A DNA stretch of 45,077 nt. It comes from an uncultured Candidatus Saccharibacteria bacterium. Lineage in GTDB: Bacteria > Patescibacteriota > Minisyncoccia > Phycocordibacterales > UBA2100. Both the position numbers and the translations under genes were made by a program. Of the stretch, positions 1 through 44,575 are shown one piece after another. The stretch's first letter is position 1. The number at the start of each line of letters is the position of its first letter. The notes beneath the pieces were generated by a model. The model saw only the letters and a list, made by a program, of their open reading frames with translations, did no database searches and had not been told where the DNA came from. Location: assembly GCA_964351105.1 (NCBI GenBank), contig CAYGMC010000002.1, positions 11,010-56,086 of the forward strand, in the 5' to 3' direction.

Positions 1-2636
1 AACTCAACCCGCGCGACTGGACTCTGAGTAACATCGCGTACATGAAAAAGCAGATCAAATCTATGGGGACTTCCTTTGACTGGTCGCGCGAGGTCGTTAC
101 CTGCGATCCCGCATACTACAAATGGACGCAGTGGCTTTTTCTGCAATTTTTCAAAAAAGGCCTCGTATATCGTAGAGAGACGGCGGTCAATTGGTGTCCT
201 TCATGCAAGACGGTCTTGGCAAATGAGCAGGTGGTGGATGGTAAGTGTGAACGATGCAGTACCGAAGTAATGCAAAGGCAAATGCTCCAGTGGAATATCA
301 AAATCACCGATTACGCGGACAGACTCGTTGACGACCTCGATGCACTCGATTGGCCAGAGCAAATTAAGGAATCCCAGCGCAATTGGATCGGCCGGAGCGA
401 AGGCGCGGAGGTAGATTTCTTTTTGGATTTCGGCAGTGCAGAGACAAACGCTCGTGTAGATAGTGCGGGCAAAAAAGCTCATCTCACCGTGTTTACTACG
501 CGCATCGACACGCTCTACGGCGCCACGTATCTTGTATTGGCACCCGAGCATCCCCTCCTTCGCCAAAGCTTCGGAGGGCAAGCGTTTAGTGCCATTCTCC
601 AGAATAAAAATGAAGTCGAGGAGTATATCGAGCAAGCAAAAAAGAAAACAGAAATTGAGCGGCTGACGGAACAAAAAGACCCTTCCACGGGCTCGGGGCA
701 GGCAAAGACAGGAATTGAGGTGAAGGGCGTACAGGCGATTAATCCAGCAACCGGAGAAAAAATACCTTTGTATGTGGCGGATTATGTACTCGGTCATTAC
801 GGCACGGGAGCTGTGATGGGCGTGCCCGCGCACGATGAACGTGATTTTGAATTCGCCAAAAAATATAATGTTGAGATCAGGGGGGTACTCGAGCCGCTCA
901 CGGAGCGAGCGTCCGGATTCGACGCGGTGAAAGCGGGAGAATCTTTTCAAGATAGATACGCAGCGATGGCTATTGTTAAACACCCAACCGAAGACAAGTA
1001 TCTATGCCTTCGATGGCAAAAGAATGATTTGCGCGGATTTGTTTCTGGCGGCATTGAATCGGGCGAGACCGCTGAAGAGGCTGCGAGACGCGAGATAACC
1101 GAAGAGACGGGTTATAAAAATCCGCGCCTTGTTCGAGCACTCGGACAAGTACATACAAAATTTTATCGTGTCGATAAGGGTGGCAATTTGTTCGGGCATT
1201 TTCAGGGGTTTCTTTTTGAGCTGGAGGATGAAGAGTACGAAGAACCAAGCAAGGACGAACAACTAATACACAAGGCTGAATGGGTCGCTGTAGACGATGT
1301 AGAAAACTTTATCAGCCGCGACGACATGAAAATTTTATGGTCGAGAATAAACGGCGATAAACCGTATTCCGAGAAAGGAATTCTTGTGAACTCGAACGAT
1401 TTCAATGGACTTACAACCGATGAAGCGAAAATTGCACTCACCGAAAAATTTGGCCGCGTCAAAACGACCTACAAACTTCGTGATTGGATAGTCTCGCGCC
1501 AACGCTATTGGGGAGTACCGATTCCCATTATTCACTGCGAGAAATGCGGAGCTGTTGCTGTCGAAGATTCGGATTTGCCCGTAAAGCTCCCCGATGTCGA
1601 AGATTATCTCCCCGAAGGAAGTGGTAAATCACCGCTTGCCAAAGCAGAGAAGTGGGTGAGGGTGAAGTGTCCGCAGTGCAAGGGGGACGCCGAACGTGAG
1701 ACAGATACGCTTGATACATTTGTAGACTCTTCTTGGTATTTCTTGCGCTACACGGATCCCAAAAACGACACGCAATTTGCAGACGCGCAAAAGCTCGCTT
1801 CGTGGATGCCTGTCGATCTCTACTCGGGAGGGGCAGAACACACGACGATGCATGTGCTCTATAGTCGTTTTTGGCAGAAGGCGATGTATGATCTCGGGCT
1901 TGTAAAAGACACAGAGCCGTACCAACGACGCATGAATCGCTCTCTCATCATGGGGCCAGATGGACAAAAGATGTCGAAGTCGAAAGGTAACGTGATCGAT
2001 CCCGATGAAGTGGTAGAGCGGTTGGGGGCAGACACGGTGCGTATGTATCTTGCGTTTATCGGGCCCTACAGTGAAGTGTCCAGTTATCCGTGGAATCCTG
2101 ATGGGGTAGTGGGCGTACGCAGATTTCTTGAGCGCGTATGGCGGGCGCAAGACTACATGCTCGACACCGACGTGGACGAGCTCGGTACTATACTGCATCA
2201 GAGCATAAAAAAAGTAGGCGAAGACATCACGCAATTGAAATTCAACACAGCAATTGCACAGATGATGATATTTTTGAACAAACTCGAGAAAGTTAAAAAA
2301 ATAGGACAATCACAGTGGCAAGCGTTCTTAATACTGCTCGCACCCTTTGCGCCGCACATCGCGGAAGAATTGTGGCACGAGGGGGGTAATAAAAGTTCGG
2401 TACATATCCAAGCGTGGCCAGACTACGACCCCGCACTTCTCGTTGAAGATGAAATATCTATTGCTATTCAGATCAACGGAAAGACACGAGGAGAGATACG
2501 GGTCGCGGCTGGAGCAGACAAAGCAGAAATTGAGCAAGCGGCTCGGGAAGCGGTAGCAATGAAATTACAAGGAAAATCAGTAATCAGAACAATTTTGGTG
2601 CCCGGCCGCCTCGTCAATTTTGTTGTGGGGGAGTAA
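1..2636 (+). CDS. leuS: Leucine--tRNA ligase (class Ia), 5' end cut by the window edge; carries an in-frame Nudix-domain insertion
   Basis: The frame is open from nt 3 (..NPRDWTLSNIAYMKKQ..), so the ATG at 42 is internal. LeuRS hallmarks are present: the Zn knuckle CPSCKTVLANEQV..CERC, the CP1 editing motifs TVFTTRIDTLYGATYL and GTGAVMGVPAHDERDFEFA, YKLRDWIVSRQRYWGVPIPI, and the KMSKS loop (QKMSKSKGN). TAA stop at 2634-2636. Confidence 0.93.
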   Translation, partial: LNPRDWTLSNIAYMKKQIKSMGTSFDWSREVVTCDPAYYKWTQWLFLQFFKKGLVYRRETAVNWCPSCKTVLANEQVVDGKCERCSTEVMQRQMLQWNIKITDYADRLVDDLDALDWPEQIKESQRNWIGRSEGAEVDFFLDFGSAETNARVDSAGKKAHLTVFTTRIDTLYGATYLVLAPEHPLLRQSFGGQAFSAILQNKNEVEEYIEQAKKKTEIERLTEQKDPSTGSGQAKTGIEVKGVQAINPATGEKIPLYVADYVLGHYGTGAVMGVPAHDERDFEFAKKYNVEIRGVLEPLTERASGFDAVKAGESFQDRYAAMAIVKHPTEDKYLCLRWQKNDLRGFVSGGIESGETAEEAARREITEETGYKNPRLVRALGQVHTKFYRVDKGGNLFGHFQGFLFELEDEEYEEPSKDEQLIHKAEWVAVDDVENFISRDDMKILWSRINGDKPYSEKGILVNSNDFNGLTTDEAKIALTEKFGRVKTTYKLRDWIVSRQRYWGVPIPIIHCEKCGAVAVEDSDLPVKLPDVEDYLPEGSGKSPLAKAEKWVRVKCPQCKGDAERETDTLDTFVDSSWYFLRYTDPKNDTQFADAQKLASWMPVDLYSGGAEHTTMHVLYSRFWQKAMYDLGLVKDTEPYQRRMNRSLIMGPDGQKMSKSKGNVIDPDEVVERLGADTVRMYLAFIGPYSEVSSYPWNPDGVVGVRRFLERVWRAQDYMLDTDVDELGTILHQSIKKVGEDITQLKFNTAIAQMMIFLNKLEKVKKIGQSQWQAFLILLAPFAPHIAEELWHEGGNKSSVHIQAWPDYDPALLVEDEISIAIQINGKTRGEIRVAAGADKAEIEQAAREAVAMKLQGKSVIRTILVPGRLVNFVVGE
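897..1367 (+). other. Nudix hydrolase domain (~155 aa) inserted inside LeuRS
   Basis: A complete Nudix box Gx5Ex7REUxEExGU reads GGIESGETAEEAARREITEETGY at nt 1047-1115. It is in frame with leuS (ORF-track aa 336-358). It is flanked by the LeuRS segments ..AKKYNVEIRGVLEP and EKGILVNSNDFNGL... Confidence 0.8.
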
Positions 2637-15452: not shown

Positions 15453-17366
15453 TTATTTAGCGATTACTCCAGAAGTCCAGGCGAAGTTGTCGGAAACATC
15501 AACAGCCTTTACGTTGACTGCACTTCCGTTATTTACAGCGCCTAGTTTAAAGACGATAGAGCAAGCCGGTGGCGTGGGGGTCGGTGTTTTAGGGGTGCAC
15601 GTCTTCTTCAAGACTCCACCGACCAGTATCTGGATTTGCCTAACGGCTACGTTGTCAGTCGCCAGAGCAGTAATCGTATACTGCGTCCTACTAGTTTGCT
15701 GATTGGTAGTGATGGCGATTGTTGGTGGAGTTGACTCCAGCACTCCGGTAGAAATACTTGCAGTATTGCTGAACGTGGAGTTGCCGGAGCTGTTGTAAGC
15801 AGTAACTCGATAGTAATACGTCGTATTTGGTACCAAACTAATATCGTACCAGCTCGTAATGTTGGCTCCGACGGAAGTATAGCTCGTATAGTTGATTCCA
15901 TCTAGAGACCTATGTATATAAAACCCAGTTTCGTCATTTGAATTATCTGTCCAAGAGAGCTCTGCACGTAAATTCGAGAGCAGTGTGGCAGTAAGAGCAG
16001 TCGGAGCGGTTGGCAGTATAACGGGAGTAGGGGGAGGTGTTACGGGCGTGCTACTACTAAACCCAGCGACAATCGACGAAGTCAGGTTAGCTGTCCGCGC
16101 ATTATCTCTTTGGTCAGCTATCCCAGTAGGGTAACTGGCGTAAGATACAGACGGGTTTGAGAAGTGAGCGACTCGGGGACAACCCGATGGACAATTGTAA
16201 GACATCACTGTTTTAAATACGCCATCTAGATAGTGTCCATACGACCAGGGGTAAGAAGATCCACTGGCATTTGCGGGATCATGCGCCATACCCATATTGT
16301 GACCATTCTCATGCGCGTAGGTCAGGTTTCCGACAGCGCATGACCTCGCTGTTACTTGGAACGCGTAAGGAGCAAAAGATGAGGCCGGTGTGCTCATCAT
16401 ATAACCAACACCACAATAGCCCCCGCCATTTTCGACAATGAGAGACACCATATCGGCAGAGTACTGCTGGCGCAGTGCTGCTACCGCGGAGTTTGTTTGC
16501 ACCCAATTCAAGTCGGCAACGCTGTTACCAGAATCGTTGTACGCTGCTTCGGCTGTCGCTACCAAGTTAAAACGAGTGCTCACCTGGCTGTTTGCGAAAG
16601 CGACGTTGGCGTGATCAACAGCCGCTTGAATCAGAGTATCAATCTGCCCAGCGCCTCCTGCTGCAGTCATAGCCTGGGGAGTATAGACCGAGAGCACATC
16701 GATTTGCACTACATCACCAGCAGTGACGCTGATACTATCGACTGTTTGGCTACCTCCGCTCTGCACGTCGCTTTTTATATCATGGGGCGCAATTGGATCC
16801 TTTTCTGCTGGAAAGAGTTTCGGATCTATCTTTTCGATTATATGGTCTGTTCCCTCGTGCGGTCTGACTTCATATAATTCGCCACCAGTCCTAATAACTC
16901 CGGCCAAGAAACCATTCTTAAGAGTCAAGCTTACTTCAGAATCAGCTCGACCCTCCACAGTTCCCCTCCAATGCACGTTACCCAATTGACGTCTCTCGAA
17001 GGATTTTTGATTTATTACGATTGTTTTTCCATCGGGCAACTTTACTTGCATTCTTGGAGCGCCTCGTTCGACTTTTTCAGAATCAGTACTAAGCAAGTTA
17101 GCGGCAAGACCAAAAGGGCCAACCTCCATATTAACTGGCTTACCAACAAAAAGATGAGGTAACGTCATAGACTCTTCCTGAGCCATTATAGCCGCATAGA
17201 GCGCGGCTTGTTCATTGAACTCAATATTAGTGTTATACAAAAAAGAGCTAGCCCACAAAATTGCCAAAAATAAGACGGCGAGGTGAAGCGGAGTTTGTGC
17301 AGCATTGGCGTGCCAACGAGCGTACCAAGTAAATCTATTGGATAAGTTTTCGTGCAGTTTCTTCAT
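15453..17366 (-). CDS. Secreted or membrane-anchored metzincin-type zinc metalloprotease with a fibronectin type III domain and a C-terminal Ig-like domain
   Basis: HENGHNMGMAHD (HExxHxxGxxHD) lies at nt 16278-16313. The FN3 domain reads LTATLLSNLRAELSWTDNSNDETGFYIHRS..YYYRVTAYNSSG. The start is trimmed to the ATG at 17366 (MKKLHEN..), which is followed by a TM/signal anchor. Confidence 0.85.
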   Translation of the reverse strand: MKKLHENLSNRFTWYARWHANAAQTPLHLAVLFLAILWASSFLYNTNIEFNEQAALYAAIMAQEESMTLPHLFVGKPVNMEVGPFGLAANLLSTDSEKVERGAPRMQVKLPDGKTIVINQKSFERRQLGNVHWRGTVEGRADSEVSLTLKNGFLAGVIRTGGELYEVRPHEGTDHIIEKIDPKLFPAEKDPIAPHDIKSDVQSGGSQTVDSISVTAGDVVQIDVLSVYTPQAMTAAGGAGQIDTLIQAAVDHANVAFANSQVSTRFNLVATAEAAYNDSGNSVADLNWVQTNSAVAALRQQYSADMVSLIVENGGGYCGVGYMMSTPASSFAPYAFQVTARSCAVGNLTYAHENGHNMGMAHDPANASGSSYPWSYGHYLDGVFKTVMSYNCPSGCPRVAHFSNPSVSYASYPTGIADQRDNARTANLTSSIVAGFSSSTPVTPPPTPVILPTAPTALTATLLSNLRAELSWTDNSNDETGFYIHRSLDGINYTSYTSVGANITSWYDISLVPNTTYYYRVTAYNSSGNSTFSNTASISTGVLESTPPTIAITTNQQTSRTQYTITALATDNVAVRQIQILVGGVLKKTCTPKTPTPTPPACSIVFKLGAVNNGSAVNVKAVDVSDNFAWTSGVIAK

Positions 17367-17454
17367 GCAATCATCACCATGGTACCCACCCACACCAACA
17401 GACGCTAGCCTGATCTGTTGATAAGTAAACCGACCTACTTACGAGACGCGACTA

Positions 17455-34191: not shown

Positions 34192-35802
34192 TTACGTGGA
34201 TGTGGATAAGAGCGGGACTTCGACGACAAAACGAGACCCTTTGCCCGCGCCTTCGGATTCAGCGCGGATAGTACCACTGTGCGCTTCGATGATCTGTTTG
34301 GCGATGAAGAGTCCGTAGCCAGTGGAGTGCACGTTGACCTTGATTGATTCCTTACCGTGCCCACCTTCGGTAAAAAGATTGTGCATGTCCTCGGGCGTTA
34401 TGCCGACTCCAGTATCTTGTACGGAAAAGATTGCCCTCTCACCCTTTCTCTCCAACGAGACCATGATTTTTCCAGACAACGTATATCGAAATGAGTTGTC
34501 GACGAGATTGCGTATGATGTGTTGAGAAAACTTCGGCTCATCTCCCACCAAAGTGAATGACCCTTCATCAATTGAGACCGAAAACTCGATGCCTTTTGCC
34601 TCGATGACAGACCTGAGATCGTTGGTTACCGATAGCACGGCGGCTTTCAGATCAAAAGGCACTTTATTAAAGAGCATCGTGCCTCGTTTGAAATTTGAAG
34701 CATCAAGAATATCCATGGTGGTACGCACACCCTGACGCACTTCGCCCAGAGCGTTCTCTGCCATTTTGCGCAGATCAGGACTCACTGCCCCATAATCGCC
34801 TTCCACGATTGCCGCAAAAGCCGCACTGCTTTTGGCCAGATAACCTTTGATCTCGTGGCTCACGAAATGCAACATGGATTCTTGCTGTTTGTTGGCAGCT
34901 TCGAGCCCCTGCTCTTGTTGTTGAATGAGTTCACGCTGCTGGACTTCACGGAGTACGCTTCGTACGAGCATGACGCCAGAAAAAAGTACGAGGACAAACG
35001 TGCTGGTTCTGAAGACTATTGAAACAATGTCCCGAGAAAACAGGATCTCAAGAAAACTTACGACGGCTAAACTGAAGATCAGCAGAGCTGTGGCAGCAAT
35101 TTTGACGTTGAATATATTATGGCGGAGAACCGCGTATCCGATCGAGAGGACAAGAGGAAACATGAAAAGCGCACCGTACGGAACGAATATGGGATTATTA
35201 AACAGCGCGGCGATAACAAAGTTGAATACAATGACCAGCGTAAAGGTTGTTGCGATTCCCCCGAGCATAATGAGCATTCCACTGCGATTATCTTTTTTAG
35301 CCTCAGCAGTTTTAATGATAAGCAAGGCTACTGCGCGTACCACGAGACTTACTGCAAGCAGGCCGAAAAGGATAATGCCGGGACCCGATTCAACGCGAGC
35401 CACTTCTCCAGCCATCGTGCCGCCAACGACATTCGAGAAAACGACGGGTGTAAGTGTAAGCAAAGACACCGCGACCACCGATGGAAATAAAATAAGCCGA
35501 TGATGGCGCGAAAACGTCCGGACATCGTTGGGAAATGTCTCAAAAAGTTCGTGCAGAAAAAAAGCTTGCCACACTGCACAAAACATGATGCCCCGAATCA
35601 ACCATAGAGCCAAAATTGGATTCTGAAACTGATAACTCAAATAATTAAAAATTCCCCACAATGCCGTCGCAATGGAAAAAAGGAAAAACATTCGGTTCGT
35701 AACGCTCGAAGGTTTGCTTACGTACGCGGCAAAACCGATCAGCACAGTACCAGCCACAATGGTAGCAAGTGCGAGTAAATCTAGATTGTGTATCGCCCCC
35801 AT
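34192..35802 (-). CDS. Sensor histidine kinase with a multi-pass (~7 TM) N-terminal domain
   Basis: H-box FVSHEIKGYL, N-box IIRNLVDNSFRYT, G1 VQDTGVGI, and G2 GYGLFIAKQIIEAHSG. No response-regulator gene is present in the window. Confidence 0.85.
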   Translation of the reverse strand: MGAIHNLDLLALATIVAGTVLIGFAAYVSKPSSVTNRMFFLFSIATALWGIFNYLSYQFQNPILALWLIRGIMFCAVWQAFFLHELFETFPNDVRTFSRHHRLILFPSVVAVSLLTLTPVVFSNVVGGTMAGEVARVESGPGIILFGLLAVSLVVRAVALLIIKTAEAKKDNRSGMLIMLGGIATTFTLVIVFNFVIAALFNNPIFVPYGALFMFPLVLSIGYAVLRHNIFNVKIAATALLIFSLAVVSFLEILFSRDIVSIVFRTSTFVLVLFSGVMLVRSVLREVQQRELIQQQEQGLEAANKQQESMLHFVSHEIKGYLAKSSAAFAAIVEGDYGAVSPDLRKMAENALGEVRQGVRTTMDILDASNFKRGTMLFNKVPFDLKAAVLSVTNDLRSVIEAKGIEFSVSIDEGSFTLVGDEPKFSQHIIRNLVDNSFRYTLSGKIMVSLERKGERAIFSVQDTGVGITPEDMHNLFTEGGHGKESIKVNVHSTGYGLFIAKQIIEAHSGTIRAESEGAGKGSRFVVEVPLLSTST

Positions 35803-35822: not shown

Positions 35823-36863
35823 CTACACAAAGCGCACTTCCGCAGGAAGACGTTTGGTGCGTGCTGAAACTTGCCCCGCTTTGCCGACACGGAGCATGAA
35901 GAGGATATGAGGCAACGACGTTTTGCTCGTCGCAACGAGGCGTGCATGAGCGTCTCGAATCATATGTTGGTGCTTTGTGGAAAGCGTACCCACATCCCCA
36001 GCCACAAGGCGCTGATACAGGAGCGGGAGCCCCACGATTGGCTGTACCGCGAGCCCAAGTGATTCTGCGGTCAACCAAAATCGCTCAACCGCCATTCCAA
36101 CACGCAAAAAGGCATTTTTATCGTTGGCTGCAGAAGAAAAAACCGCAATGGCGGGACCAGAGGCATACAGGAGGGCATTTTGACCTGCAATTGCCTTCGA
36201 CACGCCAAGTCGAGTCGCAAAACGCAAGAGAGGCCAATACGAGAATAATTTAAAAGCAATTTTTTGCGGCCCCGCAAGACCAAGAGTATCGACAAAAAAA
36301 CCCGGGCGCTTCTCATCTTCTTTCTTGGTCCATGTTATGTGACTAAAAAGAAATCGGTGTAGTTCTTTATTTTCAAGCACTATTCGCTCGTTGACGCTCG
36401 CAATCTCTGCAATTTGTGTACAGGCGTCTTTTTCTTGCACGATGTCAACATGTGTGTCGCTCGAGTTTGTACTGAGAAGATTCGCCACGATCTCACGGTG
36501 CAATGTTTCCGATGAGTATGTGTTGCGATTCGAATGTCTTGATTCAATGTACGTATTGAGTAGCGTTTCCGATATTTTATCCGCAGTGCACGTGATATAC
36601 GCCACTGCACGGTTGTCGGGGAAGACATTTATTTTTGTTGCATATCCAAGCGCCGCCGCGCGGGTACGCATATTTTCGAGAAGACATCCGTGAGCTATGT
36701 AAGACGCCTGCTGTTGGTAATTGTACAGAGAAGTATCTCGTTCAGGAACATTATATACTGTAATAACGTCTTCGTGAATTTCAAAACGCCATGGTTGCGC
36801 ATTGTCGCCGGAAGGAGCGCGGATACCAGCATCAATGATAGATAGAATATGCGCTCGTGGCAT
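35823..36863 (-). CDS. Tandem nitroreductase-fold protein (Acg/Rv3131-like)
   Basis: ILSIIDAGIRAPSGDNAQPWRFEI is the nitroreductase-superfamily N-terminal signature. At 346 aa the protein is about twice the single-domain size, as in the Acg family. Confidence 0.72.
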   Translation of the reverse strand: MPRAHILSIIDAGIRAPSGDNAQPWRFEIHEDVITVYNVPERDTSLYNYQQQASYIAHGCLLENMRTRAAALGYATKINVFPDNRAVAYITCTADKISETLLNTYIESRHSNRNTYSSETLHREIVANLLSTNSSDTHVDIVQEKDACTQIAEIASVNERIVLENKELHRFLFSHITWTKKEDEKRPGFFVDTLGLAGPQKIAFKLFSYWPLLRFATRLGVSKAIAGQNALLYASGPAIAVFSSAANDKNAFLRVGMAVERFWLTAESLGLAVQPIVGLPLLYQRLVAGDVGTLSTKHQHMIRDAHARLVATSKTSLPHILFMLRVGKAGQVSARTKRLPAEVRFV

Positions 36864-36870
36864 ACGATGA

Positions 36871-38391
36871 CTATCTCGCTACCCAACGTTGCTTTCCAGT
36901 GGAGCTAAAGTATTCAGGGTCACCGTACTCATGTAACACAATATGCGGCGTAGAGCTTGCGGCATCGCTGGAATAGTTGTTATTGAACTCGGAATTTCGA
37001 CGGCGCAATTCTGCGACCACAACTTCTGTTGTCTTGATTCGTATTTCGTCAGAAGGAACGATTTCCTGTCGCAACTCTACATGGATGTCGAGTGTCTGTT
37101 GCATACGGTCGTTCTCACTCCGCACAGCAGTGCATTTACCCGTAAGCCAGTGCTCAAGTACTTTATTATCCAGCGCGACACGGATTTCTTCGGGGTAGAT
37201 GTTTGCCCCTCTAAAAACAATCACAAAATCAGCTCGCGCATGAATATAAACGAACGGCAACGGGAGCACCATTGTTTCGATGTCATACTTTTTTATCTCA
37301 AAATCAAGGTCAACGCCAAGTTTTGTGAGTGTAAGGCGCATCGTGTCGAAGGTAATGACACCACCGAGGTCAGAAAAAGCGTATCGAACAAGAGGTATAG
37401 ACGAACCATACCCTGTGGCAAGAATTTGTCCGTCTGTTTCTTCAAAATACACATGGTCTGGATAGTATTGAGCAAGTGTCGGAATATTTTGAGCGCGTGG
37501 GAAAAGAGCTTGGAAAACATCTGGACGTTCAAAGGCAATTCGACGAATCATGTTGGTAAGGGCGGTTTCGTGAGCAATGGTGCCCTGTTCTACCGTCCCG
37601 TATATATTGACCATGTCACGCACCGGATCTGCCCCACTGAGCTCAGAAAGATGATTACGAAATTCTTCGGAATAACCTTCAGCGGCTGTGAGGATCCGCA
37701 GACGGTGCTTTTTCCAATCAATACCGTGCACACCTCCTTCGTCGAGAATATCTTTGATGAACGGTGGATATCCCATCAAAATAACTTGATCGAACAGCGG
37801 GGCGAACTTTTTGAACGACCGGAGGTACAACTCTTTTTGCGGACCGATCGGAATAAGGGTCATAGGGAAACCATTCTCTGCAAGTTTGTTAAAGTTTTTG
37901 TAAGTAAAAATACCTCCAATCCATATTCCAAGCCCAAAGCCCACGAGACACAGTGTAGAGCGTTTGCCCACGTCCCACTGTCCGGAAAGGAGGACGCGCA
38001 TGGAGCGTTCATAAAAAGCGTCATGCTCACTACTGCGAGGGAAAAAAAACGGTTCTCCTGTCGATCCAGATGTCGCAGATACTGTTGTCGAACGGTGAAG
38101 AGCAAGCGGAGCAAAAAGATCTTGATACGGATAGGCCCGCAAGTAACTGTCTTTTGAGATCGTTGGAATTTTTTTGAACTCTTCTATGGTGTGAATTGGA
38201 TCATTCAGATTAACACCATGAGCATCAAGAAAGTTTTTGTACGCGGGCACGTGGGTGCGCGCAAAATCCAAAAGCCCCAACGCCATTTTCTCTCCTTTTT
38301 TCTCCCAAAATTCAGGAGACTTTGTTCGAGAATCGCTCAGCTTTTTTCTTAAAGGAGCAGATGGAAACACTGGCGCAGGGTGTTTACGCAT
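36871..38391 (-). CDS. Adenylate-forming enzyme, PaaK/CapK/coenzyme-F390-synthetase-like
   Basis: The P-loop-like motif SATSGSTGEPFFFPRS matches (S/T)SGTTGxP in PaaK-type ligases. The protein also has ..NIYGTVEQG.. and a C-terminal lid region. Substrate is unknown. Confidence 0.68.
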   Translation of the reverse strand: MRKHPAPVFPSAPLRKKLSDSRTKSPEFWEKKGEKMALGLLDFARTHVPAYKNFLDAHGVNLNDPIHTIEEFKKIPTISKDSYLRAYPYQDLFAPLALHRSTTVSATSGSTGEPFFFPRSSEHDAFYERSMRVLLSGQWDVGKRSTLCLVGFGLGIWIGGIFTYKNFNKLAENGFPMTLIPIGPQKELYLRSFKKFAPLFDQVILMGYPPFIKDILDEGGVHGIDWKKHRLRILTAAEGYSEEFRNHLSELSGADPVRDMVNIYGTVEQGTIAHETALTNMIRRIAFERPDVFQALFPRAQNIPTLAQYYPDHVYFEETDGQILATGYGSSIPLVRYAFSDLGGVITFDTMRLTLTKLGVDLDFEIKKYDIETMVLPLPFVYIHARADFVIVFRGANIYPEEIRVALDNKVLEHWLTGKCTAVRSENDRMQQTLDIHVELRQEIVPSDEIRIKTTEVVVAELRRRNSEFNNNYSSDAASSTPHIVLHEYGDPEYFSSTGKQRWVAR

Positions 38392-39433
38392 ATGAATTGA
38401 ATATTTCCTCTGCTAATGCGTTCGATATACGGTTGGTGGGACGATTCTCTCTCTTGCTCTGGCTGATGATAGAAGCCAATCTGTCGCCTATTGCGAGAAT
38501 CTTTCTCTCGACACGATTCCTATCATAAGTTGGATTCTCATACTCATCGAATACGGCGATGAGACCGCCAGCGTTTACCACAAAGTCAGGTGCATAGAGA
38601 ATGCCTCTTGCGTGAAGTGCGTCGCCGTCTTCCTCGTGTTCCAACTGGTTGTTCGCTCCACCAACAACGATGGAGCAAGAAAGTTCTGGGATTGTCGTGC
38701 TATTCAACGCGCCACCCATCGCGCAAGGAGCGTACACGTCAACCTTCATCTTGTGAATTTCTTCGGGGCTTACCATAACGATCTCGGGGTAAAGCGTCTG
38801 TATACGAACAACCGCCGACGGGGAGATATCGCACGCAAATATTTTCTCTGCCTTGCCCACAAGAGAAGCAATGAATCCGGAACCTATTTTGCCAAGCCCT
38901 TGGATTGCAAAAGTTCGCCCCTCGATAGAAGGACTGGAAAATACTTCATTGAGCGCCGGGGCGAGTGCATAGTAAATACCGAGCGACGTAAATTCGGTAG
39001 AGTTATCATTAAAACCTACAATGTTGGGCGTCTCGCGTTTCATAAGCAGGAGATCTTCTTGCCGCACACCGACGTCTGTTCCTGTAATAAAGTCGTAGCG
39101 AAGATCTGAGATAGATCTTGCGTAGGCCGACAAAATTTCTTCTCTTTGTACACCTGGATTTGCCTTATCGAGTATAACAGCTTTTGCACCCCCGCACGGT
39201 AAACCCGCAAGAGCCGCTTTATACGACATGAGCCTCGAAAGACGCAGTGCGTCGCGGAGACCTTCAACGTCGGTCGTGTAATGCCAGAATCTTGTCGCCC
39301 CAAAGGAAGGTACGGAATGGTTTTTTCGATGAATTGCTACAAACGCTTCCATTCCCACCTCCTCGTCTCGAAGCAATTTTACAAGATGATGATTTTCATA
39401 TTCGGGCAACTTTCGAAAATCATCAGAGGTCAT
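38384..39433 (-). CDS. Glu/Leu/Phe/Val dehydrogenase family protein (Leu/Phe/Val-dehydrogenase-sized)
   Basis: FGATRFWHY..EGLRDALRLSRLMSYKAALAGLPCGGAKAVI contains the catalytic-Lys region. The Rossmann motif is FAIQGLGKIGSG. The protein also has GGANNQL. Length is 349 aa. Confidence 0.83.
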   Translation of the reverse strand: MTSDDFRKLPEYENHHLVKLLRDEEVGMEAFVAIHRKNHSVPSFGATRFWHYTTDVEGLRDALRLSRLMSYKAALAGLPCGGAKAVILDKANPGVQREEILSAYARSISDLRYDFITGTDVGVRQEDLLLMKRETPNIVGFNDNSTEFTSLGIYYALAPALNEVFSSPSIEGRTFAIQGLGKIGSGFIASLVGKAEKIFACDISPSAVVRIQTLYPEIVMVSPEEIHKMKVDVYAPCAMGGALNSTTIPELSCSIVVGGANNQLEHEEDGDALHARGILYAPDFVVNAGGLIAVFDEYENPTYDRNRVERKILAIGDRLASIISQSKRENRPTNRISNALAEEIFNSYA

Positions 39434-39436
39434 ATG

Positions 39437-40555
39437 TTATGCGGTGTGATGAAGCCATTCTCCTGACGCAGGACTTATATACGCTCGTATGTCGGGCTCC
39501 ATGTTCTTGCGCAAAGCAATCTGTTTAATAATGTACGTAGCAACTACGCCTCCTAAAAGCGCGGCTGACCCCAATTGTGACCACGAAACGAGCTTTTTTG
39601 CAAGCACTCGTTGAACGGATCGAAGCATGGCAGGATCCACCTTCTCAACTCCCCCTACAATGTCCTGCATGATCATACGACCGGCCGCCTCTTTAGTCAT
39701 TGTTCCGCTCACCGCTTCGTCAAAATACGTTGGCTCTTTACCGAAGATAGTTTTAACACCAAGGTCGTATCGTTCGACATGCAAAACAACACCGTCGCCA
39801 TTATCGGTCACCATGACAACAGGAATTTGATATTTCATTGCAAGTTTCCGAGTCATTATTTTGAACGGCATATCATCAACTTCGTCGACGATACAATCAA
39901 TCTCTTTTTTCTCAAGGAGTTCGGTGAGCCTTCTTGCGTCGACACCTTCGGACAGTGCGGTTACGTGAGCAAAAGGGTTGTCTTCGTGTATACGCCGCGC
40001 CGTTACCGTCGTCTTGTTAAGACCTATTTGATGTATACCAGCAAGTATTCTGTTGAGGTTTGTTGTATCAAGTTCATCGAAGTCTGCGATCGTAATGTTG
40101 TTCGAAATACCAGTTTGCGTGAGCATAATCACTACGTTTGACCCTACACTTAATCCAAATACCGCTACGCGAAAATCACGAAGTCGGAGTTGCTCTGAAG
40201 AGGTGATAAGATCTTGGTTGCGATTTGTCTTGAGTTTGAAGTAATCACTCTCGCCCACAGTCGTTACAAGGTGTCCATTCCACGGATAGTACACATAAAC
40301 TTCACTGCCCTGTTTGAGAACAAGGTATTTTTTAAATGCATCGCTAGACCATGCTTCTTGCTTATCCTTCCCTATCCACTCTTCATTGTCGATAAAGAAA
40401 AGTTCACGAAGCTGCCTTGTATAGGCATCGACGCGGACTATGTTTGGATGTTTTTCTAAAAAGTCGGCGAGTGAATCCCTCTCGATAATGAGGGGCATGT
40501 ATGCTTCTTTAGAGTTTTCCATATGCCCCAGTACGTTATTGTGAAGAGAAATCAA
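39437..40555 (-). CDS. ThiF/MoeB/E1-like adenylyltransferase with an N-terminal extension (resembles the ThiF half of Rv1355c/MoeY-type proteins)
   Basis: FRVAVFGLSVGSNVVIMLTQTGISNNITIADFDELDTTNLNR is the E1 nucleotide-binding fold. It is preceded by ..VYYPWNGHLVTT..KLKTNRNQDLITSSEQLRL. The start at 40555 is TTG (a 4-nt overlap with the upstream gene). An ATG alternative lies at 40522. Confidence 0.78.
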   Translation of the reverse strand: MISLHNNVLGHMENSKEAYMPLIIERDSLADFLEKHPNIVRVDAYTRQLRELFFIDNEEWIGKDKQEAWSSDAFKKYLVLKQGSEVYVYYPWNGHLVTTVGESDYFKLKTNRNQDLITSSEQLRLRDFRVAVFGLSVGSNVVIMLTQTGISNNITIADFDELDTTNLNRILAGIHQIGLNKTTVTARRIHEDNPFAHVTALSEGVDARRLTELLEKKEIDCIVDEVDDMPFKIMTRKLAMKYQIPVVMVTDNGDGVVLHVERYDLGVKTIFGKEPTYFDEAVSGTMTKEAAGRMIMQDIVGGVEKVDPAMLRSVQRVLAKKLVSWSQLGSAALLGGVVATYIIKQIALRKNMEPDIRAYISPASGEWLHHTA

Positions 40556-41046
40556 CCTCTACGAAAAAATGCAAGCGCTCCGTATGAAGCAATAACCCAC
40601 CAAAGTTTGTACGTACTGCCGAATATCAGCTGCACTGATGGCCCGAAGTGCCATAGCGGGTTTGAGCCGAGCATTTCATTTGCAAAAACAATCATAAGTG
40701 CGGTCGTGGCAATACCGATGCAAAGAGCTGAAAGAGGGAACGCGCTTCCGATGAAATTGTCGCCGAGCATACGAAATACCATGAAAAAAATGAACACAAA
40801 TACTGCGATAGCAAGCATGAGCTCCGTGGGAGCACTTTCGGTCAGTGTTACCAATTTCGAGAGTCCGAGCGTCGTAGGTATGGAAGTAAGAGTGAAAACG
40901 ACGACAGGCATGGTGAGAGAAAGAGCGAGTGCCAATCGAACACCCATACGGAGCGTGTAAATGGTTATGAACAAAGCGCATAAACCCACAACAACCCAAT
41001 CGAGTGGGAGTGCTGGAATATTTGATGAAATAACGTCTGGGACCAT
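40552..41046 (-). CDS. Small polytopic membrane protein (4-5 TM; possibly CvpA-like)
   Basis: The protein is hydrophobic throughout, with no catalytic motif. The ATG at 41046 lies 5 nt after the dnaJ stop, and a GTG alternative lies at 41055. Confidence 0.55.
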   Translation of the reverse strand: MVPDVISSNIPALPLDWVVVGLCALFITIYTLRMGVRLALALSLTMPVVVFTLTSIPTTLGLSKLVTLTESAPTELMLAIAVFVFIFFMVFRMLGDNFIGSAFPLSALCIGIATTALMIVFANEMLGSNPLWHFGPSVQLIFGSTYKLWWVIASYGALAFFRRG

Positions 41047-41051
41047 AGAGA

Positions 41052-42119
41052 TCACATTCCTTCAGCGCGCAATTTTTCTACTAGTTCGCGCGCGCTTTTC
41101 GAGAGTTTTTTAGGGAATTGTATGTCGATACGGACAAGTAAATCTCCGCGCGCGCCTCTGCCATGTGGCACTCCTTTTCCACGAATACGTATTGACTCGC
41201 CATGAGCTACGCCTGCGGGCACCGTAAGTGCTTCGTCACCTTCGAGCGTGTGAACACGGTACTCCCCTCCCAAAAGTGCGTCAGTAAGCTTGATAGAGAG
41301 CGACGTCTGAAGATTGTTTCCTTCACGCACGAAACGAGCGTCCGATCGCACATGTAGTTTGACGTATAAATCTCCGGCGGCAGCGCCCTGAGCGGCCTCT
41401 CCGAGGCCTGGCATACGTATCATTTCTCCATGTTCTACACCAGCAGGGACCACAATATGAATTTCTTCCTCACGCTTCATCACCCCTTCTCCACGGCACA
41501 CCGTACATGCTGATTCTGGTAGGTCGCCGCGACCGCGACATTTTGGACACGAACGACTTGAACTGAACGCGCCAAAAAATGTATTGCGGGTCTCGCGAAT
41601 TTCTCCCTTGCCGTTGCACGAAGTGCACGAGATTTTTTTTGAGCCAGTCTTTGCGCCAGTGCCAGCACAGGACCCACATGTGCCTACTTTTGCTATCAAC
41701 ACCCGCCTTTCGGTGCCAAACACAGCCTCTTTGAAAGGAAGTTCTATATCAATTGACACATCCCGTCCCCGCGAGCGCCCGTGCGAATTGCCACCGAAAA
41801 AATCACCAAAAATATCACCGAGATCAAATTCCTGTGCACCAAAACCATGTCCGCCTTGCGAAAAATTAGAGAAATCAAAACCGCCAAATCCTCCTTGCGG
41901 CCCACCTCCTCCAGCAAACGTTTTGCCGTATGTATCATACTCTGCGCGTTTCTTTGCGTCAGAAAGAGTGGTATATGCTTCGGATATTTCCTTGAATTTT
42001 GCCTCATTACCGTCTTTTTTGTCGGGATGATACTTTTGGGCAAGTTTTCTGAACGCGCTCTTTATTTCATCAGCACTTGCCGTTTTGGAAACACCGAGAA
42101 TGTCATAGTAATTTTTCAT
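41052..42119 (-). CDS. dnaJ: Molecular chaperone DnaJ
   Basis: J-domain [18 protein letters not shown], a G/F-rich linker, and four CxxCxGxG zinc-finger repeats. Confidence 0.93.
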
Positions 42120-42134
42120 TACTGCGATTATACA

Positions 42135-43982
42135 CTACTTCTGCCCTTCTTCGGGCGGCTGTTCACTTCCTTTTTCGGATTGGGCTTTTTGCATCGCCTC
42201 TCCAATGGCAGACATAGACTTCGATAATTCTTCCGAGGCGGAGTGTATCACCCCAGCATCGCTCCCCCCTCGTGCAGTTTTGAGCGCATCAATCTTTTCC
42301 TGCACGTTCTTTCTGATATCTTCGCTCACTTTCTCTCCGTGCTCTTTCAAAGATTTTTCGGCGGCATATATCACTTGGTCCGCGGCGTTCTGTGACTCAA
42401 TCAGCTCTTTCTTCTTTTTGTCCGCTTCGGCGTTTATATCGGCATCTTTGCGCATTTTTTCGATATCCGCTTCCGAGAGTCCGGAACTTCCCTCGATCCT
42501 GATGGACTGCTCTTTACCCGACGTTTTGTCCTTGGCTTTCACGGTCAAAATACCATTTGCATCAATATCAAACGTTACCTCCACTTGCGGTGTACCGCGT
42601 GCCGCTGGTGGAATCCCGTCGAGATTGAATCTGCCGAGAGATTTATTATCTCCAGCCATGGGTCGTTCACCTTGTACTACATGGATCTCGACGGATGGTT
42701 GATTGTCGGACGCGGTAGAAAAAACCTGCGAGCGCGATGTGGGAATAGTCGTATTGCGATCAATGAGCTTGGTCGCCACGCCTCCTAATGTCTCAATTCC
42801 AAGCGAAAGCGGGATAACATCGAGGAGTAAGACGTCTTTGACATCACCTTTGAGGATTCCTCCCTGAATGGCCGCGCCTATCGCGACAACTTCGTCGGGG
42901 TTGACGCTCATGTTTGGTTTTCTGCCGAAATAGTCCTCCACTGCTTTTTGAAGAGCAGGCATGCGTGTCTGACCGCCCACCAACACGACTTCGTTGATTT
43001 CAGCAATCTTAAACGGTGAATTTTCGACGGCGCGCTTGGTAATCGTCATTGCTCGGTCAATGAATTCACGCGAGAGTTCTTCGAGCTTTGCACGTGTCAT
43101 TTTAATAAGGAGGTGTTGGGGTCCTGCCTCTGTTGATGTGATGAATGGTATATTTATTTCGGTTTCAAGTGCGGTTGAGAGCTCGATTTTTGCCTTTTCG
43201 GCCGCTTCATCGAGACGCTGTCGTGCCAGCGGATCGTTTCGCACGTCGACACCGCTTTGCTTCTTGAATTCATCTGCTATCCAGCTCATGATCTTCTGAT
43301 CAAGGTCTTTTCCACCGAGATGCGCGTCGCCGTCGGTGGAGCGCACTTCTATTACATCATCGCCAACCTCGAGTACTGATACGTCAAACGTGCCTCCACC
43401 GAAGTCGAATACGGCGATTTTCTCGTTCTTTTTCTTATCAAAACCATATGCAAGTGCCGCGGCCGTCGGTTCGTTGATGATTCGTTTTACATCGAGTCCA
43501 GCGATTTTCCCCGCATCGCGGGTGGCCTGGCGCTGACTGTCGTTGAAATAGGCGGGTACGGTGATGACGGCTTCGGTGATTACTTCACCAATGCGGGCCT
43601 CTGCGTCTTGCTTCAATTTCTGCAAAATCATCGCCGAAATTTCCTCAGGTCGGTACCATTTTTCGGCCATCTTTACTTCAATGCCGCCATTGCCGGATTT
43701 TTGTATCTCAAAAGGGACGGCCGCTTTATCTTTGGCCACCCCCGATTCGTCGAAAGAGTGTCCGATAAATCGCTTGATTTGGTATACGGTGTTCTTGGGG
43801 TTTGTGACACCTTGTCGCTTGGCGAGCAAACCGACCAAACGCTCCCCTGTCTTTGAAATGGCAACGACAGACGGCGTTGTGCGCACACCTTCCGCGTTTT
43901 CGATGATGTTTGGTTCGCCGCCCGTAACGATTGCGATGGCGGAATTGGTAGTACCGAGATCTATGCCGAGAATTTTTGACAT
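42135..43982 (-). CDS. dnaK: Molecular chaperone DnaK (Hsp70)
   Basis: Contains [34 protein letters not shown] and an EEVD-less acidic tail. Confidence 0.97.
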
Positions 43983-43984
43983 AC

Positions 43985-44575
43985 TTATTTTTTAACAAAT
44001 ACTTGCGCGGGACGCAAGACCGTCGTGCCCATACTGTATCCAAAACGAAGTATTTTTACAATAGCGTGTGGCTCGCCTTCTCCCTCCACTTCTTGGATCA
44101 CTTCGTGAAATCGCGGGTCAAACGCATCCCCTATCTTTCCAAATCGCTCTACCCCATTGCGCGCCATCACTTCGAGAAGCTGATTGCGCACCTGCTCCAT
44201 GCCGTTTTTCCAATTGTTAGAAACTTGCGCCCATGCCTCTGTGCTTGCCGCCATGTCAAAACTATCCAGCACGGGAATAATATCTTCCATCAACCCCATT
44301 TTTATTCTCTCAGACTTGCGTTCTGCTTCGGCGAGCATGTCTTTGCGGCTATTTATCGCATCCGCCTTGCACCTTTGCCAACCATCAAGATATTCATCGC
44401 GCTTCGCCTGCGCTTCTTTCAACTCATCTCGCAACTTTTTGATTTTTGCCTGCGCACCCGCAACGTCCCCGAGTTCTCCGGTTTCAAAATCAACCTCAAC
44501 TTCCGGAAGCCCTTCTTCAGGAATTCCGTCTTCACGCTTCTTCATTGCTCGCGAGTATACCATATTTGCGTCCAA
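43985..44575 (-). CDS. grpE: Nucleotide exchange factor GrpE
   Basis: A coiled-coil N-terminus, the C-terminal beta domain ..[23 protein letters not shown].., and a position upstream of dnaK. The start at 44575 is TTG, with an ATG alternative at 44563. Confidence 0.9.

Follow-up and report, generated by a model that had tools for sequence, protein, structure and literature searches.

We analysed a 45,077-nt stretch of DNA (the window, 45 kb) from an uncultured Candidatus Saccharibacteria bacterium (contig CAYGMC010000002.1, positions 11,010 to 56,086 of the forward strand), part of which encodes four tightly spaced enzymes, including a ThiF-like protein and a nitroreductase-fold flavoprotein, followed by a sensor histidine kinase. 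In the open reading frame (ORF) listing, co-directional genes occupy the minus strand without a break from 34.2 to 44.6 kb. The five genes considered here are:

39437..40555, minus strand: putative ThiF-like adenylating cyclodehydratase, 372 aa counted from TTG
38384..39433, minus strand: amino-acid dehydrogenase of the Leu/Phe/Trp branch, with ELFV domains
36871..38391, minus strand: PaaK-family adenylate-forming ligase, 506 aa, assigned from weak NCBIfam matches and predicted structure
35823..36863, minus strand: double nitroreductase-fold flavoprotein of the Acg/flavin oxidase (FDO) type, 346 aa, assigned from PF00881 and family models
34192..35802, minus strand: seven-transmembrane (7TM)-receptor histidine kinase, 536 aa, with HATPase_c and HisKA_7TM matches, downstream of the enzyme genes

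A first-pass annotation had described the four enzyme ORFs, and all of them are intact at these positions. Their spacing is as tight as it had claimed (+3, –8 and +7 nt), its four domain calls were upheld by Pfam and NCBIfam profile searches (for the ligase by a structure model too), and the neighbours it named, a polytopic membrane ORF upstream and the histidine kinase downstream, are in place. The true start of the ThiF gene is probably the ATG at ~40522, since the database copy of the protein (P0001) has only 361 aa. Below, Lnnn denotes related genome loci and Pnnnn database proteins.

The ThiF-like protein matches PF00899 at 80 bits in the Pfam profile search. The NCBIfam model of the Rv1355c family, NF005901, aligns with it at 204 bits over model positions 26-326; the ThiF, MoeB and TcdA models of the same collection reach at most 69 bits, ThiF and MoeB staying below their own cutoffs. 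The ThiF domain of a Rhodococcus Rv1355c-family protein is 35% identical to it over residues 84-348, and the top matches in a plasmid collection are ‘Rv1355c family proteins’ of Rhodococcus, Mycobacterium and Mycolicibacterium. The ~110-aa N-terminal extension that precedes its Rossmann domain is common to this family as well (model positions 26-326).

The first-pass annotation treated Rv1355c as uncharacterised, which is out of date: Rv1355c is TrzS, a fusion of a ThiF cyclase and a flavin oxidase that converts N-acyl-Trp to N-acyl tryptazolone by ATP-dependent cyclisation followed by O2-dependent desaturation, its N-acyl-Trp substrate being supplied by the acyltransferase TrzA (PMC12856293). 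TyzB and TyzC form a split pair that carries out the same conversion for N-acyl-Tyr (PMC10404671). OxzB from Pseudoalteromonas rubra was the first example of such an enzyme (bioRxiv 10.1101/2020.06.11.147165; PMC12596934), and both OxzB and TyzB/TyzC serve Tyr/Phe (PMC10404671; bioRxiv 10.1101/2020.06.11.147165). The chemistry of TrzS, TyzBC and OxzB has been shown experimentally (PMC12856293; PMC10404671; bioRxiv 10.1101/2020.06.11.147165).

Among 21 ThiF homologues from the candidate phyla radiation (CPR), the arginine finger (TNRNQ), the glycine loop (GLSVGSN), D-x-D, NLNR, a lysine and the acidic DEVDD motif are invariant. These ATP/Mg motifs line up with those of TcdA and of the Rhodococcus Rv1355c-family protein, and the ATP/Mg residues typical of oxazolone synthetases are intact, including the Asp equivalent to TrzS D217. 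The AlphaFold2 model (pLDDT 89) has AclA, ThiF and MoeB as its top PDB matches in Foldseek, and by sequence the nearest solved structures are TcdA entries (34 bits). The top structural neighbour is PDB 9egb/9egc, AclA from Tenacibaculum discolor, titled ‘in complex with substrate’; AclA chemistry may inform the function of the ThiF-like protein, and a literature search found no paper on AclA.

PF00881 is found in two stretches of the nitroreductase-fold protein. It lies nearer to the models of ThiF-fused FDOs (PRK14851, 190 bits; NF005901, 167 bits over model positions 377-715) than to the Acg family model NF047509, where its 150 bits are below the subfamily cutoff of 199. The FDO domain of the Rhodococcus Rv1355c-family protein is colinear with it at 26% identity, and the motifs APSxxNxQPW, RxxxR and FRxG are invariant in 20 flavoproteins, that domain included. 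As in the oxazolone synthetases, an Acg-type flavin oxidase is present in the ThiF operon, though two genes away. Taken together, the matches of the two window proteins to NF005901 (26-326 at 204 bits and 377-715 at 167 bits) bear out the earlier suggestion that they are split halves of an Rv1355c-type fusion. The ThiF-like protein would then be the equivalent of the N-terminal half of TrzS/OxzB, and the nitroreductase-fold protein that of the C-terminal half and a predicted C-alpha/C-beta desaturase. Two nitroreductase subtypes occupy this slot in related loci: the shorter, Acg-like one, present in L016, L017, L020, L021, L035 and L036, has ~17-21% identity to the window protein and no WT..EE insertion.

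The 506-aa ligase has no Pfam match. The PaaK model TIGR02155 matches only its N-terminal part, at 55 bits against an equivalog cutoff of 646; the F390-synthetase model gives 35 bits, and PaaK from the PDB (2y4o) 49 bits. An AlphaFold2 model built from 27 homologues (pLDDT 86) was matched by Foldseek to PaaK1/PaaK2 over both domains (E ~1e-23 to 1e-21, TM up to 0.72), and further matches over both domains were BT_0428, NatL2, AjiA1, 2-hydroxyisobutyryl-CoA ligase (HCL) and ClxA. All 27 homologues have the P-loop TSGSTGEP, YGTVE, the A8-like RGANIYP and, at the C-terminus, GK(500)Q without variation. The ligase has a PaaK fold with a complete set of adenylation motifs. Homologues number ~500, plus ~360 in a second clade; the ~500 carry no precomputed Pfam domain, and nearly all homologues with a source name are from Patescibacteria. 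This distribution suggests a PaaK-family subfamily restricted to CPR bacteria.

On the dehydrogenase, Pfam detects ELFV_dehydrog_N (56 bits) and ELFV_dehydrog (67 bits). Its top NCBIfam match is the Trp dehydrogenase ScyB (275 bits, below the equivalog cutoff of 600); no scy genes lie alongside, and the context of a scytonemin cluster is missing. Among PDB entries, 8gxd, the tryptophan dehydrogenase (TrpDH) 5b37 and leucine dehydrogenases (LeuDHs) score ~225-230 bits. The ELFV fold, GxGxxG and the equivalents of the catalytic lysines K68 and K80 (MSYKAA, GGAKAV) are all present, and the pocket, with ITGTDVG and NAGGLIAVFDE, resembles that of TrpDH (ITGQDVN, NAGGLINVYNE) and not that of LeuDH (ITAEDVG, NAGGVINVADE). 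We predict that the enzyme is NAD(P)-dependent, belongs to the Leu/Phe/Trp branch and accommodates side chains in a TrpDH-like pocket. Across the four enzymes, the ATP-binding, FMN-type, P-loop/A10-Lys and catalytic-Lys motifs are invariant among homologues, and so the genes, judged by these residues, are not decayed, a possibility that the first-pass annotation had raised.

The position of the dehydrogenase can be taken by unrelated enzymes. A HisC-type class I/II aminotransferase replaces it in L001, L006 and L012, and an aromatic ammonia-lyase with the 4-methylideneimidazole-5-one (MIO) motif in L064, L123-L127 and L130. The lyase-bearing loci form a second cassette clade, again from CPR bacteria, with a ligase of ~478 aa that has at least 363 homologues. 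Here the genes are arranged as lyase, ThiF, HisPhos, ligase, nitroreductase and kinase (L064); ThiF, ligase, lyase, nitroreductase and kinase (L123, L124); lyase, ThiF, ligase, nitroreductase, methyltransferase and kinase (L125); or lyase, ThiF, ligase, nitroreductase and kinase (L126, L127). By NCBIfam, the lyases are nearest to the FlxA tyrosine ammonia-lyase (TAL; 595-610 bits) or to histidine ammonia-lyase (HAL; 345-369 bits), in all cases below cutoff. Four of them have an ‘SH’ motif, which we take to be a HAL feature, but among these four the NCBIfam ranks put FlxA-type TAL first for L064 and L126 and HAL first for L123 and L124, so that the lyases may be of the HAL, TAL or phenylalanine ammonia-lyase type. 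On sequence evidence, the deaminating slot is interchangeable between dehydrogenase, aminotransferase and ammonia-lyase. That three non-homologous deaminases share one slot, and that one of these is effectively irreversible, is an argument for a step from an aromatic amino acid to an amine-free aryl acid, which would be a substrate of the PaaK-ligase type. Just upstream of the cassette in L124 (3237-5897) are genes for an indoleamine 2,3-dioxygenase (PF01231) and a pterin-4a-carbinolamine dehydratase, that is, additional aromatic amino-acid metabolism beside the cassette.

We examined how far the gene set recurs. In a protein database clustered at 90% identity, the ThiF-like protein has 1035 matches at E <= 1e-3; the best 120 of these are 55-69% identical and 347-403 aa long, and the named ones come from metagenome-assembled genomes of Paceibacterota/Parcubacteria. 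A scan of one genome per GTDB species yielded 37 loci, nearly all labelled Patescibacteria (Paceibacteria, Kaiser-, Nomura-, Magasanik- and Woesebacteria), whereas for a few the automated label reads otherwise, for example ‘uncultured Gammaproteobacteria’. This distribution places the window, too, in an uncultivated CPR bacterium. In 28 of the species loci (the long loci), 6.5 kb or more of sequence follows the ThiF gene; when these were searched with the window proteins, the full set (deaminating enzyme, ThiF, ligase, nitroreductase and 7TM kinase) was found on one strand in 25 of them. The usual order is ThiF, dehydrogenase, ligase, nitroreductase, kinase; L033 and L036 have the dehydrogenase gene before that of ThiF, and 3.7-6 kb of unrelated genes are inserted in the cassette in L005, L007 and L026. 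Flanking genes vary among loci, which means that the conserved unit is the gene set itself.

At the level of 50%-identity representatives, the CPR ThiF family falls into about one cluster, beyond which relatives have 30-44% identity and some are 575-1242 aa long. Searches with Pfam and phmmer revealed several fusions among the database proteins. ThiF is fused to a nitroreductase in P0277, P0291, P0297 and P0355, which are among the nearest non-CPR relatives, to an alpha/beta-hydrolase in P0268 and P0269, to an ammonia-lyase in P0280 and to the ligase in P0270, and P0322 combines dehydrogenase, ligase and ThiF. P0322 is found in identical form on contigs of two different assemblies, with a nitroreductase gene before it and hydrolase and 7TM kinase genes after it; P0280 is followed by ligase, nitroreductase and kinase genes. 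Through these natural fusions, every enzyme type is linked to a single pathway. We conclude from gene content that the four enzymes and the kinase make up a five-gene cassette conserved in Patescibacteria (CPR).

Some loci contain further genes. TrmB-like regulators are encoded in or beside the cassette in L005 (13765-15326), L007 (13730-15294), L012 (12609-13430) and L125 (491-1270), the call being backed by Pfam in L125 only and judged from similar N-terminal sequence in the other three; in L005 and L007 two copies sit between ligase and nitroreductase. Optional extra enzymes are an alpha/beta-hydrolase (L128, 9732-10607; fused in P0268/P0269) and a class I S-adenosylmethionine-dependent methyltransferase, which lies between nitroreductase and kinase in L125 (9503-10231). 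They suggest tailoring or ring-opening steps.

The histidine kinase belongs to the conserved cassette, which the first-pass annotation overlooked. It matches HATPase_c at 82 bits and, below cutoff, HisKA_7TM at 25 bits (Pfam), and 16 orthologues share without change its H-box His316 and its N, G1 and G2 boxes. In 27 of the 28 long GTDB loci, and in all rearranged or fused variants seen, the kinase gene immediately follows the enzyme genes; it is retained where the nitroreductase is missing (L027, L039). A metagenome scan seeded by the kinase alignment keyed on the generic N-box, so that most of its 80 loci are unrelated kinases and only L048, L051 and L064 were informative. No response regulator gene is present within the window. 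Elsewhere, stand-alone receiver proteins follow the cassette kinase in L124 (11192-15440), L027 (15303-16867) and L039 (8410-9943); in L124, a receiver-T2SSE (pilus/secretion ATPase) fusion and T2SSF also follow it, a possible output of the kinase. The kinase is apparently split in L127, and L123 (4818-5765) encodes, between dnaJ and the ThiF gene, a 315-aa paralogue of the 7TM sensor domain without a kinase part, which scores 83 bits with the N-terminus of the window kinase.

With moderate confidence, we read the cassette as akin to the oxazolone synthetases OxzAB, TyzACB and TrzAS, though split and rewired; it would make an oxazolone from aromatic amino acids. The dehydrogenase would convert an amino acid with an aromatic or bulky side chain to a 2-oxo acid by removing its alpha-amino group, as suggested by the non-orthologous displacement and the pocket residues; elsewhere the aminotransferase would do likewise, and the ammonia-lyase would yield an acrylic acid. 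The ligase would then adenylate the acid and attach the acyl group to the amine of an amino acid, standing in for the acyl-CoA-dependent N-acyltransferase of known pathways and giving an N-acyl amino acid; alternatively, it may form a CoA thioester for use by an unlinked transferase. By homology to TrzS, TyzB and OxzB, the ThiF-like enzyme is expected to adenylate the carboxylate of the N-acyl amino acid, after which the amide oxygen would close a 5(4H)-oxazolone, and by homology to FDO domains the flavoprotein would desaturate C-alpha/C-beta to a conjugated oxazolone. More speculatively, the labile hydrophobic product might be sensed by the 7TM kinase or made under its control. The data support the idea, put forward earlier, that the enzymes form a single coupled pathway in which two carboxylates are adenylated, amino acid and oxo acid are interconverted and a flavin enzyme performs a redox step. 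They agree also with the statement that no characterised pathway has the whole gene set: our literature search found no paper describing the cassette.

Several observations weigh against the oxazolone reading. All substrate assignments, and the product itself, are predictions from genes, and the two carboxylates may be assigned to the two adenylating enzymes either way. PaaK itself is a CoA ligase, and the sequence features examined separate no amide-forming from CoA-forming enzyme. The summed NF005901 score of the two halves (204 + 167 = 371 bits) is below the equivalog cutoff of 476, just as the nitroreductase stays below the Acg family cutoff (150 and 199 bits, respectively). Characterised FDOs use O2, and many CPR bacteria are thought to be anaerobic. 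The nitroreductase is missing from L027 and L039, where the ligase abuts the kinase, and L012 has only aminotransferase, ThiF and ligase, both nitroreductase and kinase being missing. Finally, the same family includes more distant 7TM kinases that are encoded apart from the cassette, in some cases still close to dnaKJ, and the linkage of the kinase could partly be conserved regional synteny.

What the product is for can be read in two ways, each of which we put forward tentatively and consider possible rather than probable. The cassette may be a self-contained CPR chemical signalling module, in which scavenged aromatic amino acids are turned, with no acyl-CoA involved, into a labile aryl-acyl dehydroamino-acid oxazolone whose receptor is the 7TM kinase. 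De Rond et al. describe oxazolones as water-labile and antibiotic-induced and suggest a role as stress signal. Equally doubtful is that the same enzymes make a small molecule for another use: the oxazolone (azlactone), or a ring-opened N-acyl dehydroamino acid, would then be no signal, serving instead as a reactive acyl donor or as a metabolite of the envelope or of stress protection, with the kinase doing no more than regulating the operon. Mycobacterial tyrazolones and tryptazolones have been treated as lipids, and tyz has been linked to oxidative-stress survival (PMC10404671); the location of the cassette after grpE-dnaK-dnaJ in many genomes fits such a use, as does the alpha/beta-hydrolase added or fused in some variants, which could open or transfer the ring. 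However, the kinase stays attached through all rearrangements, which is unusual for a mere regulator without an adjacent response regulator, and the sequence data do not separate this use from the signalling one.

The remaining explanations depart from oxazolone chemistry altogether. Aromatic amino-acid catabolism or salvage through aryl-oxo or aryl-acrylic acids to aryl-CoA, with ThiF and nitroreductase as accessory or unrelated proteins, would account for the dehydrogenase, aminotransferase and ammonia-lyase, which are classic first catabolic steps, and for the ligase, because PaaK and 4-coumarate ligases are CoA ligases and the ligase is labelled phenylacetate-CoA ligase by JGI. We nevertheless consider it unlikely: no downstream paa catabolic or beta-oxidation genes were found in the window or related loci, the ligase is fused to ThiF in P0270 and P0322 and reaches only 55 bits against the PaaK cutoff of 646, and the ThiF/nitroreductase pair is specifically of the oxazolone-synthetase type. 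In another explanation, which follows the framing of the first-pass annotation, an E1-like enzyme would activate a protein or ribosomal peptide (ubiquitin-like, MccA-like or PaaP-like) at its C-terminus for modification by the other enzymes; the annotation accordingly considered a carrier or an E2, JAB or YcaO partner, and saw none. To expect such partners is misplaced because the Rv1355c family is now known as an oxazolone-making enzyme (TrzS), and small-molecule cyclodehydration is to be expected instead. The ThiF fold is indeed common to E1, MccB and PaaA, which are among the Foldseek matches of our model, but the ~110-aa extension before the Rossmann domain, which might recall such enzymes, is found in the small-molecule Rv1355c family as well. 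The protein has one Cys, located before the acidic motif, and its C-terminal 145 residues are Cys-free, leaving no Cys after that motif; its sequence also has no CxxC pair for a Zn site. Of the ORFs of 20-150 aa, only two in the whole window end in GG, at ~2.3 and 26.8 kb, neither of them close to the cassette; the intergenic gaps of 3-20 nt are too small for a precursor gene, and Pfam and NCBIfam detected no E2, JAB, YcaO or sulfurtransferase domain among the window proteins. E1-type protein or peptide activation was rejected as a candidate on the missing Cys/Zn motifs, GG-ended ORF and precursor space, and is very unlikely given that ThiF and nitroreductase appear to be separately encoded halves of a TrzS-type enzyme. 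Least credible of all is fortuitous adjacency without a common function in a compact, co-directional genome, which had been posed as a refutation of the pathway. Genes are densely packed in CPR bacteria, which makes close spacing by itself weak evidence, and no promoter or terminator signal above chance was seen; yet the set recurs in 25 of the 28 long loci, in several gene orders and with differing flanks, and as multi-domain fusions, which refutes adjacency by chance.

CPR bacteria, or Patescibacteria, are ultra-small and mostly episymbiotic, with minimal biosynthetic capacity, and we know of hardly any conserved specialised-metabolite or signalling pathways in them. Present in dozens of species-level lineages and in hundreds to ~1000 metagenomic protein clusters, the cassette offers a testable handle on CPR small-molecule chemistry, and possibly on cell-cell or stress signalling too. 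If the oxazolone reading is correct, oxazolone biosynthesis would extend to a new phylum, with a new acyl supply (deaminase and PaaK-type ligase replacing the acyl-CoA N-acyltransferase), products that are probably aryl-acyl instead of fatty-acyl, and a function for a large PaaK-family branch without a Pfam model. If the cassette is in addition a signalling module, it would represent a quorum-sensing- or stress-signal-like system in organisms thought almost devoid of specialised metabolism, whose output might be receiver proteins and type IV pilus ATPases, L124 being an example, and which might share its expression with the DnaK chaperone operon.

The surroundings of the cassette in the window include the following genes:

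43985..44575, minus strand: grpE (GrpE match in Pfam/NCBIfam)
42135..43982, minus strand: dnaK (HSP70 match in Pfam/NCBIfam)
41052..42119, minus strand: dnaJ (DnaJ match in Pfam/NCBIfam)
40552..41055, minus strand: polytopic membrane protein, 167 aa, between dnaJ and the ThiF gene, with ~4-5 hydrophobic segments
after the kinase: CARDB protein, 1233 aa (Pfam), minus strand

The co-directional grpE-dnaK-dnaJ genes upstream are a recurrent synteny, dnaJ being found upstream of the cassette in L012, L013, L017, L019-L021, L031, L035, L038, L040, L123 and L127. In searches of the window, promoter and terminator patterns occurred no more often than expected by chance, and a CIRCE element was absent; the cassette and grpE-dnaK-dnaJ are possibly one transcription unit. 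The 167-aa membrane protein has no Pfam or NCBIfam match and only weak homologues at the same position, in L013 (22 bits) and L040 (11 bits). It is missing from most loci and unrelated to the 7TM domain of the kinase; considered as a component of the system, it was rejected as not conserved, and it is probably not a core part.

Two other regions of the window are unusual. The leucyl-tRNA synthetase (42-2636, plus strand, 864 aa) carries a NUDIX insertion (PF00293, 66 bits, residues 311-420) between the editing domain and the second half of the catalytic domain, an unusual architecture. At 12265-34146, the minus strand encodes a series of very large proteins that are probably secreted or located at the surface: one of 1061 aa with PG_binding, one of 991 aa without a Pfam match, one of 816 aa with LCCL, Laminin_G_3 and CARDB, and the 1233-aa protein, in which CARDB is joined by an M6-like domain. 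An M12B/reprolysin-like peptidase is encoded at 15453-17393 in the same region.

Parts of the cassette have counterparts in several known systems. Aromatic deamination followed by adenylation of the aryl acid likewise occurs in flexirubin biosynthesis (FlxA/FlxY) and in the modules of TAL and p-coumarate ligase that serve the photoactive yellow protein (PYP) chromophore and aryl-homoserine lactones. These have a polyketide synthase, PYP or LuxI partner, none of which accompanies the cassette, and a ligase of the 4-coumarate:CoA ligase type, in contrast to the PaaK-family enzyme here (21 bits with the FlxY model, a weak match); moreover, the deaminase of the window is a dehydrogenase, predicted to form a 2-oxo acid. 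The benzoxazole-pathway ligases NatL2, AjiA1 and ClxA share the fold of the window ligase (Foldseek E 1e-14 to 1e-16), but at only ~15-18% identity, and they act on substrates of the hydroxy-anthranilate type and have no ThiF or nitroreductase partners. They pass the acyl-adenylate straight to a nucleophile, forming ester or amide bonds without CoA, and it is an activity of this kind that we propose for the window ligase.

In Vibrio, genes for synthases of small hydrophobic molecules lie beside those for polytopic-membrane kinases without an extracytoplasmic domain (CqsA/CqsS, LuxM/LuxN). This pairing of synthase and membrane sensor kinase, a comparison from general knowledge, is an analogy only: there is no homology to the cassette, and binding of the product by the cassette kinase is a speculative part of our model. 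The tRNA t6A dehydratase TcdA is, like the window protein, a ThiF-like enzyme whose ATP-dependent dehydration closes an oxazolone-type ring (PMC12596934). However, its substrate is tRNA, it is shorter and lacks the N- and C-terminal extensions common to the window protein and Rv1355c, and its model scores 50 bits on the window protein, compared to 204 bits for the Rv1355c model.

The closest likeness is to OxzAB, TyzACB and TrzAS (Rv1356c/Rv1355c of Mycobacterium tuberculosis), which combine a ThiF-like ATP-dependent cyclase with an Acg-type flavin oxidase, as the window does. The window ThiF and nitroreductase proteins are colinear with the two halves of the fused enzyme and keep its ATP and flavin motifs, and like TyzB/TyzC they are a split pair. 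The differences lie in the host, Patescibacteria here and Proteobacteria or Actinomycetota there, in scores below the NCBIfam equivalog cutoff and in the partners. An N-acyltransferase of the OxzA/TyzA/TrzA type, present in the known systems, was not found in the cassette: at E <= 1, searches of the window and 45 loci gave no acyltransferase homologue, with the Rhodococcus gene at the trzA position and a Streptomyces GNAT adjoining a related ThiF as queries, which are positional or neighbour genes and not authentic OxzA, TyzA or TrzA. Nor was there a GNAT Pfam match in the scanned window ORFs or the called genes of related loci. The cassette adds instead a PaaK-family ligase, a deaminating enzyme and a 7TM histidine kinase, and its acyl group is probably aryl-derived, whereas the known systems use fatty acyl-CoA. 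What would be new relative to the known oxazolone pathways is therefore a CPR-restricted ligase with an alternating deaminase where no N-acyltransferase was found, and a sensor kinase that closes the cassette. Thus, the core chemistry that we predict has a precedent in oxazolone biosynthesis, while the logic of acyl supply and the kinase partner appear to be novel.

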